DNA of 64,000 nucleotides from an uncultured virus (IMG/VR IMGVR_UViG_2860815047_000004) (taxonomy: Duplodnaviria; Heunggongvirae; Uroviricota; Caudoviricetes), in the IMG/VR virus record IMGVR_UViG_2860815047_000004, one strand, 5' to 3'. Made by a program: the position numbers and the translations under genes. Numbering within the stretch: position 1 is the stretch's first letter; each line of letters starts with the position of its first letter. A model generated the notes under the pieces. It did not search any database, was not told the origin of the DNA, and was given only the letters and a program-made list of their open reading frames with translations. Of this stretch, positions 3,556 through 62,271 are shown piece after piece.

Positions 3556-4695
3556 ATGAATCTTAAGCAGATGATTAAGAATGAATGTGAAAAAGACAGC
3601 CAGCTCGCAGCGAAACTCTCAAAAATAGCAGGGTACGAAAAGGTTAATGGTTTTTACAAATTCATCAACACCCCAGAGAAAGAAATGGACAACTTAGGCG
3701 GTTTAATTAATATTGTTAAAAGCTTGTTTCCTGATAATGAGGAGCAGCTTCTAAGTGATTACTTCTTATCACTGGATCCCAACAAAAAATGCGCTAGACA
3801 ATCTGTTGAATACTCCGATATCAATCAATGGGATTCATTAACAGACAAGATTATTTTAAATTTATGCCACTCAAAAAACACAACAAGTCAAGAATGGGGC
3901 AACATCTACAACATACATAGAAAGCTATATAAAAACGAAATCTCAATACCAGAAGCAATAAGAGAATGTGGGAGATGTAAAGCTCCAGAAATGTCATTTT
4001 TTTCAGATGCAATGCTGATGTATAAATACTTGAATATTGGTGAGTTCGGATTGATGAAAAGCACCTTAACACTTTTAGATTTTAAAAGCTTACCAGAAGG
4101 ATTTATAAAAGATTCGTACAAAAGTAGAGTGTCAATGTTAAAAGCGAATATAAGCTTAAACGAAAACAATTTAATCGAAGCAAGGAAACATTCAAATATT
4201 GCAATAATGCAGTCCAATGTGAACCGAATATGTTTCTTTGCACATCTGACAATAGGTAATACCCTAATTTTCGAAAATTATGAAGAAGCTATGCTGGCGT
4301 ATGTTGAGGCAAAGAAGTATGTTCTGAATGATACTCATGAAGAAATGCTAAATGGCGCTCTTTGCTTCTTAGCTAATGTATGGATCAAGGAAAATCTATG
4401 GGTTAACTATGAATCAAATGAAATCAAATATCAACAGCTAAGGGCTTTTTATTACATAAAAAGTAATAATCTCGACAAGGCTAACGAATTATTAGAAAAC
4501 TTATCAAAAAGAGATCAAGATGAAAATGAATTAGGATTTTATTTTTATTATAAAGGTTTAATATCGAGGCAAAAATCTGATTTTTTTAAATCAATAACAT
4601 ATTTTAAAGAATCAGATGATAAATATTTTATCCAATTGGCAATAATAGAACTCGAAAAATTAGGCTGTGACCCGGAGCTGCTAAATTTAATTTAG
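3556..4695 (+). CDS. aimR: Arbitrium receptor AimR (RRNPP, HTH plus TPR), phi3T type
   Basis: 379 aa; MIKNECEKD..AGYEKVNGFYKF..LDPNKKCARQSVEYSDINQWD as in phi3T AimR; followed by aimP. Confidence 0.95.
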   Translation: MNLKQMIKNECEKDSQLAAKLSKIAGYEKVNGFYKFINTPEKEMDNLGGLINIVKSLFPDNEEQLLSDYFLSLDPNKKCARQSVEYSDINQWDSLTDKIILNLCHSKNTTSQEWGNIYNIHRKLYKNEISIPEAIRECGRCKAPEMSFFSDAMLMYKYLNIGEFGLMKSTLTLLDFKSLPEGFIKDSYKSRVSMLKANISLNENNLIEARKHSNIAIMQSNVNRICFFAHLTIGNTLIFENYEEAMLAYVEAKKYVLNDTHEEMLNGALCFLANVWIKENLWVNYESNEIKYQQLRAFYYIKSNNLDKANELLENLSKRDQDENELGFYFYYKGLISRQKSDFFKSITYFKESDDKYFIQLAIIELEKLGCDPELLNLI

Positions 4696-4724
4696 AATTT
4701 AGTACTTGAAAGGAGGTGAATTTA

Positions 4725-4856
4725 ATGAAAAAAATTATTTTCGGTACAGCCATTTTAGCATCATTAGCAATTTCATTCATTGCAGGTCAACATTCAGTTA
4801 ATACGGCATCAGCTTCTGATGAGATCTCTGTAGCAAGTGCAATTCGGGGAGCTTAA
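4725..4856 (+). CDS. aimP: Arbitrium pro-peptide AimP, mature peptide SAIRGA (not in ORF track)
   Basis: RBS AAAGGAGGTGA; MKKIIFGTAILASLAISFIAGQHSVNTASASDEISVASAIRGA (43 aa, signal peptide plus hexapeptide). Confidence 0.97.
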   Translation: MKKIIFGTAILASLAISFIAGQHSVNTASASDEISVASAIRGA

Positions 4857-59882: not shown

Positions 59883-60577
59883 ATAAAACGGCTATTGATA
59901 GTGCGAGCACAGTATTCGAAAAGGTAGGCGAGGATTATATCGGAAGCAAGTCGAGGTTCGGCGATATTCTAATCGGGGCACCATATTCGGAAGCATTCGT
60001 AAAAGCCTACGCAAACGAACGAAAAGATGTCCTCGTGATTCCGCAGACAATTGAATATACTGCGTTTCTCCACAACGAGGAAATGAAGAAAGTCGCTACA
60101 CACGGTCAGGCTCCGATTGTAAGCGCCCAAGCCCGCCGTGATGAAATCGTTGAGCAGGCGAAGGCGGACGTTGAGCGACTTAAGGAGAATAACAGACGTT
60201 GGAGAGCGTTCAACATTTCGTTAAAGATTAACCGAAATGGGCGATCCGTTGAGGCTGTCGCAAAGAAGCCGAATAGTAGAACGGCGTTTTATGGAATCGC
60301 CAAAGCCGTCCCGTCCGACTGTTTCAACGTTCATATCGGAAAGGCGATTGCGTTAAGACGTGCGTTGGGATTGAAGGTGCCAGACGAATACTTAAACGCT
60401 CCGCAGCCGACTGAGGTTCGTGTAGGCGATGTTGTTAGGTCGACCGTAGATAAATCAAAAAAGTACGTAATAGCGAAAGGCGAGGAAGCATGGAGCGATG
60501 GCATGGCAGGCCTCTCGTCGATTGTCGCTAAACATGGAAGAATCATCGACGACTCACGCGAAGAGGTGGGCGAATGA
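59870..60577 (+). CDS. Hypothetical phage protein in a GC-richer patch
   Basis: GIAKA.PSDCFNVHIGKAIALRRALG phage motif. Confidence 0.8.
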   Translation: MESVNKTAIDSASTVFEKVGEDYIGSKSRFGDILIGAPYSEAFVKAYANERKDVLVIPQTIEYTAFLHNEEMKKVATHGQAPIVSAQARRDEIVEQAKADVERLKENNRRWRAFNISLKINRNGRSVEAVAKKPNSRTAFYGIAKAVPSDCFNVHIGKAIALRRALGLKVPDEYLNAPQPTEVRVGDVVRSTVDKSKKYVIAKGEEAWSDGMAGLSSIVAKHGRIIDDSREEVGE

Positions 60578-60786
60578 AGACGGTAAATGTTACGTATTTC
60601 AGGCCGAGCGGAAAGTTTTACACAGACGAAACGATCGAAATTTCCGAGGAGCTTAACGGATATCATGCGTTGCGTAAGGAGATACCGAAGCATCATCGTA
60701 TACAGGGTATGCGAATGCTCGTGCAGGATAGCGGAGACGGAAAAGAGCCCTACATTGTCCCGCATCTATACGATTCGATCTATTAA
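60574..60786 (+). CDS. Hypothetical phage protein
   Basis: TYFRPSGKFYT; coupled start. Confidence 0.75.
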   Translation: MKTVNVTYFRPSGKFYTDETIEISEELNGYHALRKEIPKHHRIQGMRMLVQDSGDGKEPYIVPHLYDSIY

Positions 60787-60983: not shown

Positions 60984-61022
60984 GTTAATATGAAATCTGT
61001 ATTTTAAAGAGAAGGTGATACA

Positions 61023-61145
61023 GTGAAAGAGTCGTTGAAGAATGATTTTCAAGAGTTTATGAGTATTACAAAAAGCTTTCTTGCTGTTTCAGGAGCAGTC
61101 TTTTGGCTATTGATAATTTCACTTGTTTTTGCTGGAGGATATTAA
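61023..61145 (+). CDS. 40-aa single-TM peptide (not in ORF track)
   Basis: RBS AAGGTGA; MKESLKNDFQEFMSITKSFLAVSGAVFWLLIISLVFAGGY. Confidence 0.6.
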   Translation: MKESLKNDFQEFMSITKSFLAVSGAVFWLLIISLVFAGGY

Positions 61146-61184
61146 AATGAGTCACTCATATGTTCACCAAAGGAGGTGAATAAA

Positions 61185-61223
61185 ATGCCAGTAGTACTTT
61201 ATGGATTTGGAAGAGGAGCATAA
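61185..61223 (+). CDS. 12-aa mini-peptide MPVVLYGFGRGA ending in an arbitrium-type hexapeptide
   Basis: Strong RBS AAAGGAGGTGA at canonical spacing; terminator directly after the stop. Confidence 0.7.
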   Translation: MPVVLYGFGRGA

Positions 61224-61247
61224 AAAGAGAGGGGACAGACCCCTCTT
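61224..61247. terminator. Hairpin between the mini-peptide and the sspC remnant
   Basis: AGAGGGG-acag-ACCCCTCT region; A-run on the left. Confidence 0.7.
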
Positions 61248-61249
61248 GA

Positions 61250-61309
61250 TTAATGAAATTGGCCATTCATACTTTGTTGGGCTAGGCGAACTAAACGCTT
61301 TGTAATCAT
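61250..61309 (-). pseudogene. sspC: 3' remnant of alpha/beta-type SASP gene
   Basis: Minus strand reads ITKRLVRLAQQSMNGQFH*, the SspC C-terminus; the 5' three quarters are missing. Confidence 0.85.
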
Positions 61310-61326
61310 GAACAATAAACAAAGGA

Positions 61327-62271
61327 GTGAAATGTATAGGCATTATTAAAGAACAAAAGGTTGAGGTCAGCTGGAATCCTATGACATCGAGACACTATCA
61401 AACACTAGGATATGAATTTACCTTTTGGAGGGATAAATTTCATGTGCCATATTATCATTTACCACTTACTTCTGAAAAAATGGTTTTAGTTTCTTGTGAC
61501 AAAGAGAAATGCACAAATGTTAAGTCAGTTAAATATAATGAATTTAACCGGTTGTACAAAAATAAAAAATATGAATGTAAAAAACATAGCCATTCTTATT
61601 ATGAGGATAAAGCGAGGGAAAGAGGGTTTATTTTAACATCAGAATACAAAGGTGTAAAAGGTAAAGTTGATTTGATCTGTTTAAAGAATGGTCATAAATC
61701 AACAAAATTGTGGTCTCAAATTAATAATGGATCTAAATGTTTAAAATGTCATCAGGAAAGCCTGAAATTGAGCATTGATTATATTAAAGAAGAATTCTTA
61801 AAGAAAAACTTATTGCTTTTATCAAATGAATACGCCAACGAAAAGAGCAAGTTAGCTTTTAAATGTAAGAATGGACACTATGGAGAAATTGCGTGGAACT
61901 ATTTTCAACAAGGAGGGGGATGCCAGCAGTGCTATAGGAAGAGTCGTTTTAGAGAAGGTAATCCGAGGTGGAATAAGAATAAAACTGATACTCAGAGGAT
62001 AAATGACAGAAAGTATCGTGAATATTTACAGTGGAGAAAGAAAGTTCTACAGAGGGATGATTACACATGTCAAAAATGCTGGCTTAAAAAGAAAAAATAT
62101 TTAACTGCTCACCATATCTATAATTATATGGAGCATAAAGATATTCGACTAGAAGTTGATAACGGGTTGACCTTGTGTGATTCTTGCCATGAACATTTTC
62201 ATAATACATATGGATACACTAACAACAATTATATGCAACTGTTTATGTACTTAAACAAAGAAGGGGGATAA
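61327..62271 (+). CDS. Free-standing HNH endonuclease with zinc-ribbon repeats
   Basis: [23 protein letters not shown]; repeated C..GH..CxxC units. Confidence 0.9.

Follow-up and report, generated by a model that had tools for sequence, protein, structure and literature searches.

The window analyzed in this work, a stretch of 64,000 nucleotides from an uncultured virus (IMG/VR record IMGVR_UViG_2860815047_000004), is part of an SPbeta-like Bacillus phage whose best public matches at the locus studied here are phi3T, Goe12-14 and other Spbetavirus records. Its plus strand carries, at positions 61185-61223, a 12-codon minigene (mini2) that encodes MPVVLYGFGRGA followed by a stop, and that ends in GFGRGA (codons at 61203-61220), an arbitrium signal foreign to the phage itself. 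As judged from comparison with its relatives, this minigene is a real small gene kept by selection in part of the SPbeta-like phages. On balance we incline to the view that its product would be an intracellular agonist mimic, which would switch off the AimR receptor of rival GFGRGA-type phages and so keep these rivals dormant.

A 12-codon minigene ending in a foreign arbitrium signal

Direct translation of the window confirmed the short open reading frame (ORF) that the original prediction had pointed out. The ORF starts with the ATG at 61185, reads ATG CCA GTA GTA CTT TAT GGA TTT GGA AGA GGA GCA TAA, and has its GFGRGA codons abutting the TAA stop (61221-61223), with Tyr as the residue just before the signal. 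GFGRGA, previously mentioned as a reported variant in need of verification, is indeed described as an arbitrium signal in PMC6458997 and in Table S2 of PMC13220667 (both sources are cited throughout from portions of their text), and GFGRGA and SASRGA are counted in PMC6458997 among the six major arbitrium families.

The phage has an arbitrium pair of its own on the plus strand, formed by the receptor gene aimR (3556-4695; Pfam AimR, E 3.7e-97) and by aimP (4725-4856), whose 43-amino acid pro-peptide has a signal sequence and ends in SAIRGA. The minigene lies 56 kb from this pair. Its 12-amino acid product has no signal peptide, and no receptor gene (AimR) was found within several kb in a Pfam scan of seven neighbouring ORFs, in which only an HNH endonuclease and a metallophosphoesterase scored above the cut-off. 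The leaderless and orphan character ascribed earlier to the ORF was thus borne out. The AimR protein of the window is 75% identical to that of phi3T, although SAIRGA is used by both phages. Receptors 99% identical to the AimR of the window were seen in two IMG/VR relatives (L103 and L104; L-numbers are labels of individual retrieved loci).

Analysis of the region 5' upstream of the minigene revealed the Shine-Dalgarno (SD) site AAAGGAGGTGAAT (61169-61181, plus strand), placed at a distance of 3 nt from the ATG. An identical 13-mer stands at 4709-4721, with an equal spacing of 3 nt to the ATG of aimP, and these two are its only exact copies in the 64-kb window. When up to one mismatch was allowed, three matches were found, in comparison with a mean of 0.25 in shuffled sequences, and none of 100 shuffles reached three. 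The 13-nt identity with aimP that the original prediction had emphasized is therefore exact, but its significance has to be revised: we take AAAGGAGGTGAAT to be essentially a perfect Bacillus SD sequence, so that the identity is that of two maximal ribosome sites and does not denote kinship of the minigene with aimP. The spacer between SD and ATG differs in relatives (GAATACA).

The arbitrium-like tail is a rare trait in this genome. Across the six frames of the 64 kb, RGA followed by a stop occurs at four sites only, corresponding to aimP, the minigene and two sites without match to any signal, and among the 20 SD-preceded ORFs of 5-20 codons present in the window, an arbitrium-like tail was found only in the minigene. 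As a separate observation, a 52-amino acid ORF in an alternative frame (60498-60656), overlapping two longer ORFs, has a tail (...NFRGA-stop) that matches no catalogued signal; it was taken as chance. Searching IMG/VR for the pattern of the family (SD plus M-x3-L-[YH]-x3-RGA-TAA) resulted in 15 matches, all of them at the minigene position in SPbeta-like contigs, and dropping the Arg requirement added a single, unrelated match. The same pattern had one match in metagenome contigs, an MPEVLY... allele, and none in a genome-contig collection, a zero that is uninformative. A broader scan (SD, ATG, 3-13 codons and RGA-TAA) returned at least 119 loci; 13 of those listed were open in-frame matches, and nine of these belong to the minigene family, all with 12 codons. 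Micro-ORFs with tails ending in ...PGG were looked for as well, and were found neither in the window nor in 19 aimR-flank loci (L089-L107). No known RNA family was detected at the locus, where the single match was sub-threshold (E 0.29).

Sister minigenes at three sites around sspC

Examination of the sspC interval of SPbeta-like genomes revealed further mini-ORFs preceded by SD sites, with tails that vary and that avoid the cognate AimP, as the original prediction had anticipated. In this survey, SD-preceded short ORFs ending in GA or GG were compared by eye with Table S2 of PMC13220667. The first sister, mini1, has 12 codons and a strong SD of its own, and precedes the GFGRGA site by about 70 nt. 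Its tail is either SASRGA or NPGRGA: it encodes MVQTLHSASRGA in SPBc2, Goe11, SPbetaL1, L069 and L080, MVQTLYSASRGA in L231/L278, and MGQVLHNPGRGA in L073, the NPGRGA form. In SPbeta (SPBc2), this strong-SD ORF lies between yosZ and sspC (L002 1443-1481; AF020713.1 about 129849-129887). In SPbetaL1 and L073 both 12-codon ORFs are intact and stand in tandem. Like mini2, the sister 12-mers have His or Tyr just before the signal.

The second sister, mini3, lies beyond sspC, some 40 nt ahead of yotB, and consists of 7 codons, that is, Met plus six residues. It encodes MSIGHGA in nine of 29 IMG/VR loci (L062, L070, L075, L081, L083-L086 and L088), in Goe11 (L246) and in L282, and MTIGRGG in L068; a 6-codon variant, MTIGRG, occurs in L063, L072 and SPbetaL5 (L249), and L082 has a frameshifted form. 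The 29 loci, anchored on the sspC 3' end only, had been drawn blind to the state of the minigene, and by our tally 19 of them carry one or more minigenes of 12 or 7 codons in intact form. The window has the GFGRGA ORF alone, with an HNH cassette sitting on the 7-codon site. Minigenes of either length are absent from the annotation in all the public records examined.

The five tails found at the three sites (GFGRGA, SASRGA, NPGRGA, and the SIGHGA and TIGRGG that follow the Met of mini3) are all present in the catalogue of 26 peptides, a coincidence that chance cannot explain. Among the 281 clade-2 systems of Table S2 of PMC13220667, GFGRGA ranks first (56 systems), SASRGA second (42) and NPGRGA seventh (13), SIGHGA shares the eighth rank (9), and TIGRGG has a lower one (5).

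We then compared these tails with the signals of the carriers themselves. Own signals were read from the aimP behind aimR in 24 relatives (25 records searched, the one miss being a 30%-complete fragment), and aimP was unreadable in one relative with aimR. None of the 14 carriers of an intact GFGRGA ORF has GFGRGA as its own signal; they use SAIRGA (2), SASRGA (4), SPSRGA (3), SIIRGA (2), GMPRGA (1), GIVRGA (1) and GVVRGA (1). The own signal is known for four carriers of the SASRGA ORF, and is GMPRGA, GIVRGA or GVVRGA in these; L073, the only phage with both SASRGA as own signal and a minigene at the mini1 site, has NPGRGA there. This variety of catalogued tails, never that of the carrier's own AimP, favours a mimic aimed at other phages over a tuning of the phage's own AimR.

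Regarding the potential targets, real GFGRGA systems in IMG/VR are found in proviruses of 28-95 kb. In the supplement of PMC13220667, the strains listed with GFGRGA systems belong to B. subtilis, B. inaquosorum, B. vallismortis, B. spizizenii and B. halotolerans, and systems of a second type come from the B. pumilus group. Real AimP of the '...ETFHVAGFGRGA' type is listed mostly from B. subtilis-group strains, which are the hosts of SPbeta-like phages. In two loci of the '...DYSTAGFGRGA' type (L008 and L050) a full-length AimR homologue is present.

Conservation of and selection on the GFGRGA ORF

An intact GFGRGA ORF, with ATG and SD, was found in 12 of the 29 sspC-anchored IMG/VR loci, including the window-like L074. 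The named phages compared were 11 of the 23 public records that match at the locus (phi3Ts, three Hyb phages, two PP5261xx records, Goe13, BUCT083, SPbetaL2, SPbetaL3, SPbetaL7 and NC_001884 were left out), and two of these 11, Goe14 and SPbetaL1, have the ORF intact. Alleles identical to that of the window are present in eight retrieved IMG/VR loci and in Goe14.

Selection was assessed by a parsimony count over six intact DNA alleles of the ORF and one variant contig from an RNA library. About 7 synonymous steps versus 3 non-synonymous ones were counted, for an expected synonymous share of 0.28 (P of at least 7 of 10 = 0.007), a result that rests on a small sample of about 10 steps. The non-synonymous steps are V3E, V3L and L5F, and none of them falls within the six signal residues. 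In the allele of L085, five of the 39 bases are changed with respect to the window, each of them synonymously. In the sister genes, SASRGA-ORF alleles show two synonymous changes and one H6Y, and MSIGHGA alleles differ only synonymously (TCA/TCG/TCT and GGT/GGC), in two flank contexts. Between types of 12-mer the specificity residues change, whereas the M..L[HY] frame and the RGA-stop are kept; the 12-codon forms also share, ahead of the signal, a conserved x-x-[VT]-L-[YH] stretch. The expectation of a frame and RGA-stop conserved in relatives holds therefore in part: both are maintained through synonymous change, but the ORF is frameshifted in phi3T and Goe12, lacks its start codon in L069, and is degenerate in SPbeta and Goe11.

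Other explanations for the presence of the ORF were considered and rejected. A recent 3' fragment of aimP, or a recombination scar, is at variance with the codons of real GFGRGA and SASRGA aimP genes, which are different (including other Ser and Arg codon families), and with their unrelated flanks. Read-through fusion with an upstream 40-amino acid ORF, which is in frame with the minigene, was discarded because of the TAA at 61143-61145; this stop and 13 codons lie between both ORFs, and in relatives phi3T_186 or another cassette occupies the place between them. As for selection on the opposite strand, the variable third positions of the plus strand are second positions of the sole minus-strand ORF (61156-61266), and this ORF crosses the sspC terminator described below.

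Proposed action inside the cell and competing explanations

In the mechanism that we propose, the leaderless 12-mer, with GFGRGA as its last six residues, would remain in the cytoplasm of the producing cell. There the peptide, either whole or after removal of its six N-terminal residues, would fill the pocket of a GFGRGA-type AimR made by a co-resident prophage or by a co-infecting phage. Binding would turn off the aimX of the rival, and during replication of the producer the rival would stay dormant or be driven to dormancy; the SAIRGA-type receptor of the producer would be left untouched. The sister minigenes (SASRGA and NPGRGA 12-mers; Met plus SIGHGA or TIGRGG 7-mers) would act likewise on other rivals. 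N-terminal Met is ordinarily removed before Ser or Thr, and the 7-codon forms would thus need removal of Met only, which fits with an action inside the cell. At the level of the whole group, it seems to us an evenly poised proposition that SPbeta-like phages possess an arsenal of forged signals, receptor-less and leaderless, in two designs and at three sites around sspC, each being the exact signal of a rival family and produced intracellularly, early in the lytic programme, so as to shut down the AimR of co-resident or co-infecting rivals. In the data examined, up to two intact minigenes are present per genome.

Published observations, in the portions of text cited here, are relevant to this scheme. 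Added cognate AimP stops prophage induction (PMC13220667), and the fitness of signal emitters rises if their receivers enter lysogeny early (bioRxiv 10.1101/2025.10.13.681967). Synthetic GFGRGA is reported not to block induction of SPbeta, phi3T or Goe11 (PMC13220667), and receptors of the producer's own kind are therefore probably blind to this peptide. The decoy directed at GFGRGA-type rivals that the original prediction had put forward is favoured by the catalogued foreign tails and by the avoidance of the own signal, but the ORF is far from being universally kept.

Several points weigh against the intracellular mimic, besides the small number of steps in the selection test. The first concerns the processing of the 12-mers. 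AimR grips both ends of the hexapeptide, with the free N-terminal amine held by the conserved residues Q299 and E300 (PMC6458997), so that trimming of the 12-mer should be required. In the 12-codon minigenes the signal is preceded by Tyr or His, versus Ala in all the real pro-peptides examined, and trimming after Tyr/His is the weakest link of the proposed route. We know of no processing route for the 12-mers.

The second point is the frequent loss of the GFGRGA ORF, which implies that any benefit from it is conditional. Among the 29 IMG/VR loci, two carry a 1-base frameshifting deletion (L061 and L087), one has ATC in place of ATG with GFGRGA retained (L069), one has an SPbeta-type degenerate copy (L080), about eight show weaker start-less relics, such as GFGKGV-stop, and five have unrelated sequence at the site. 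Among the named phages, the ORF is frameshifted in phi3T and Goe12 and degenerate in SPBc2, with ATA for the start, and in Goe11; SPbetaL4 and SPbetaL8 have relics, and SPR, SPbetaL5 and SPbetaL6 have nothing. It has to be noted that these tallies come from 29 plus 11 loci, many of them near-identical relatives, and the counts are thus not independent. In phi3T (L001, about 1901-1954), Goe12 (L242), L061 and L087 the same change is observed, a deletion of one base in the T-run that turns the product into MPVVLMDLEEEHKKRGE followed by a stop. Judging from their reading frames, the phi3T and Goe12 copies are natural null alleles.

The remaining points on this side concern the targets and the expression data. 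GFGRGA-type receptors of the '...ETFHVA' type are encoded by 320-amino acid ORFs (Pfam AimR, E 2e-71) in nine out of nine IMG/VR loci (L010, L011, L012, L017, L027, L038, L042, L043 and L044), and these ORFs are devoid of the first ~65 residues, the helix-turn-helix part, of SPbeta-type AimR. The GFGRGA-type proviruses L012 and L044 share a contig-name prefix with the minigene-carrying SPbeta-like L032 and L014, respectively, and such sharing (2 of 12 carriers versus 0 of 17 non-carriers), although in line with co-residence, is a weak signal. The minigene is covered by contigs of four RNA-library runs from two studies; as these libraries may contain DNA, the contigs attest the presence of the ORF rather than its transcription. 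Upstream of the 320-amino acid AimR ORFs, an excisionase-like ORF was observed.

Among the alternatives to action inside the producing cell, we regard as unlikely, although worthy of consideration, that the forged peptides act in public, that is, that they reach the medium by lysis or through a non-Sec exporter, are trimmed outside by host proteases, and are imported by neighbours via Opp, thereby misinforming rivals. Real arbitrium signals do act via export, trimming and import, and cross-talk through the medium alters the infections of rivals. The conserved x-x-[VT]-L-[YH] stretch could be a determinant of processing or export, and subtilisin-like proteases would be well served by a bulky hydrophobic residue immediately preceding the cleavage site. 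On the contrary, the 7-codon Met-plus-signal forms need no processing outside. Furthermore, Goe11 has an intact SASRGA minigene and the phi3T receptor answers synthetic SASRGA, yet Goe11-conditioned medium is reported to be without effect on wild-type phi3T (bioRxiv 10.1101/2025.10.13.681967, in the portion cited). This result speaks against release at active levels and in favour of action inside the cell.

Decidedly unlikely is the view of the minigene as a decaying, functionless relic of an old aimP-like element or of cassette exchange, with a conservation that is only apparent and due to the kinship of its carriers. The frequent frameshifts, losses of the start codon and degenerate copies would be consistent with decay, as would the finding of one identical allele in 10 examined loci within a region that is a mosaic hot spot. 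However, diverged alleles such as that of L085 differ synonymously and the codon choice departs from that of real aimP genes. In addition, the five tails at three sites are all catalogued, and homologous sites switch between two catalogued signals, with no drift.

We consider it quite improbable that the minigene product is an antagonist, in which the extended 12-mer would anchor by its RGA end and block the closed, inactive state of AimR, leaving the rival deaf to its own signal and leading it to lysis. AimR reads the free N-terminus, which the extension would disturb, and this extension is conserved; but what the 7-codon forms yield is precisely the mature signal, by definition an agonist, and there is no obvious gain for the producer.

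Still less credible is a role of the minigene in adjusting the lysis-lysogeny decision of its own phage through the AimR of that phage, or an action on some other own or host target. Non-cognate SIIRGA, SASRGA, SPSRGA and GVVRGA do act on phi3T-type receptors; GFGRGA, however, is not among these four cross-talkers of phi3T and failed to block the inductions mentioned above, with the caveat that the AimR of the window is only 75% identical to that of phi3T. Moreover, the same GFGRGA ORF is found in phages with seven different own signals. Finally, a chance ORF beside a terminator, to which the very short length and the lack of annotation in the public records examined might point, is hardly conceivable in view of the SD and RGA-stop statistics, the specificity of the family pattern, the conservation and the catalogued tails.

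Genomic surroundings and expression context

The minigene is the last cistron on the plus strand before a G+C-rich hairpin (61225-61247) identified as the intrinsic terminator of sspC. The hairpin, located 3' of the minigene, has an 8-bp stem (about 61227-61247; -15.3 kcal/mol), and none of 200 shuffled sequences folded as well. The structure noticed earlier right after the minigene stop is thus a real fold, but it belongs to the gene of the opposite strand: its T-run is on the minus strand, directly 3' of the stop of an sspC remnant, and a stem_loop is annotated at this place in SPBc2, which led us to assign it to sspC. It likely serves also as a 3' stop or stabiliser for the plus-strand operon.

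Only the last ~18 codons of sspC are left in the window. This 3' remnant, ending in ...ITKRLVRLAQQSMNGQFH and a stop, occupies 61250-61306 on the minus strand, within an ORF at 61250-61315; homology to the sspC of phi3T and SPBc2 ends at 61306. It is followed by an HNH endonuclease gene (61327-62271, plus strand; 314-amino acid ORF, Pfam HNH), with a right junction sequence common to relatives. In the window, the HNH cassette stands where relatives have the 5' part of sspC and, ahead of yotB, the 7-codon minigene. The same arrangement of sspC remnant and HNH gene was observed in the relatives L067/L021, L073/L031 and L277.

On the upstream side, the minigene is preceded by a 10-codon remnant (61147-61179, plus strand) encoding MSHSYVHQRR, left by an internal deletion in phi3T_186, a gene for 62 amino acids in phi3T, Goe12 and Goe14. 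The 40-amino acid ORF mentioned above (61023-61145, plus strand) encodes a hydrophobic homologue of phi3T_185 without Pfam family. Further upstream, a conserved junction block of ~25 nt (60989-61015, containing ..AATCTGTATTTTAAAGAGAA..) forms the left border of a variable cassette region. The block has 23 matches in IMG/VR, and different cassettes follow it in different phages; 60989 is also the exact position at which the close relative L032 and the RNA-library contigs part from the window sequence. The sequence of this block does not look like a sigma-A promoter.

With regard to expression, early clusters have been described by Kohm et al. (bioRxiv 10.1101/2021.11.22.469490, cited from part of its text), and we infer that the minigene interval belongs to an early cluster or early-region operon. 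The stop of the phi3T_186 remnant lies inside the SD of the minigene, and a predicted hairpin (61161-61183) pairs part of this SD; translational coupling of the minigene with the upstream remnant ORF is accordingly a possible arrangement. Two contigs of one metatranscriptome end at 61251, which is a weak hint.

Relation to known systems and implications

The minigene resembles the canonical clade-2 AimP of phi3T, SPbeta and GFGRGA-type phages in being phage-encoded, in having last six residues identical to a mature signal, and in an SD and spacing as those of aimP in the window. Several features set it apart. Canonical AimP has about 40-48 amino acids and a signal peptide, whereas the minigene product has 12 and none; the real AimPs found in these same data have 40-46 amino acids, an MKK... 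hydrophobic leader, and Ala before the signal (...VA, ...TA or ...MA). Canonical aimP is located directly downstream of its cognate aimR, with aimX next, whereas the minigene is flanked by the deleted phi3T_186 on one side and by the terminator of sspC on the other. Its codons and flanking sequences show no relation to those of real aimP genes, and its signal is never that of its carrier.

Other precursors are comparable in design only. Streptococcal SHP and ComS/XIP are very short precursors without Sec signal whose C-terminal part is active on a cytoplasmic TPR-type (RRNPP) receptor (Rgg or ComR). The minigene shares with them the short length, the lack of a Sec signal and the C-terminal active part; The genes for SHP and ComS, however, adjoin that of the cognate receptor, and their products leave the cell through a dedicated ABC transporter; the minigene has no encoded receptor. 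In 1997, Lazazzera, Solomon and Grossman reportedly expressed the mature Bacillus Phr/CSF pentapeptide inside the cell, and Met plus signal is said to have been active without export or import. That engineered minigene has the same design as the 7-codon ORFs described here, but it carried the cell's own signal, in contrast to natural phage genes with foreign signals.

Arbitrium was long regarded as a private language, understood only among kin phages. That similar signals can cross-talk, to the profit of the emitter, has been demonstrated in two recent papers (PMC13220667, Cell 2026; bioRxiv 10.1101/2025.10.13.681967; both cited in part), in which the peptide of one phage represses the AimR of another and thereby promotes lysogeny of the rival or prevents its induction. 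The proposed role of the minigene is akin to this, with the difference that cross-talk is there a side effect of similar own secreted signals, whereas here a separate, receptor-less and leaderless gene carries the exact signal of a rival. Full-text searches by hexapeptide and by topic returned only papers on canonical signals, with no description of such ORFs found and no paper on the 12-mers; term searches likewise gave no mention of such ORFs in the main texts of both cross-talk papers, nor of the 12-mers in the Cell supplements.

If the proposed mechanism is true, these minigenes would be the first case of dedicated signal forgery in phage-phage communication, and a natural case of a quorum-type peptide acting inside the cell that produces it. 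The idea lends itself directly to testing with laboratory B. subtilis and existing phages, since Goe14, Goe11 and SPbetaL1 have intact copies, phi3T and Goe12 have frameshifted ones, and the SPbeta of strain 168 possesses the SASRGA minigene in intact form. Model phages may accordingly differ in interference traits that have passed unnoticed. The minigenes would then constitute a dedicated weapon in an arms race over inter-phage signalling, which could be one driver of the diversification of arbitrium specificities and of their horizontal exchange.

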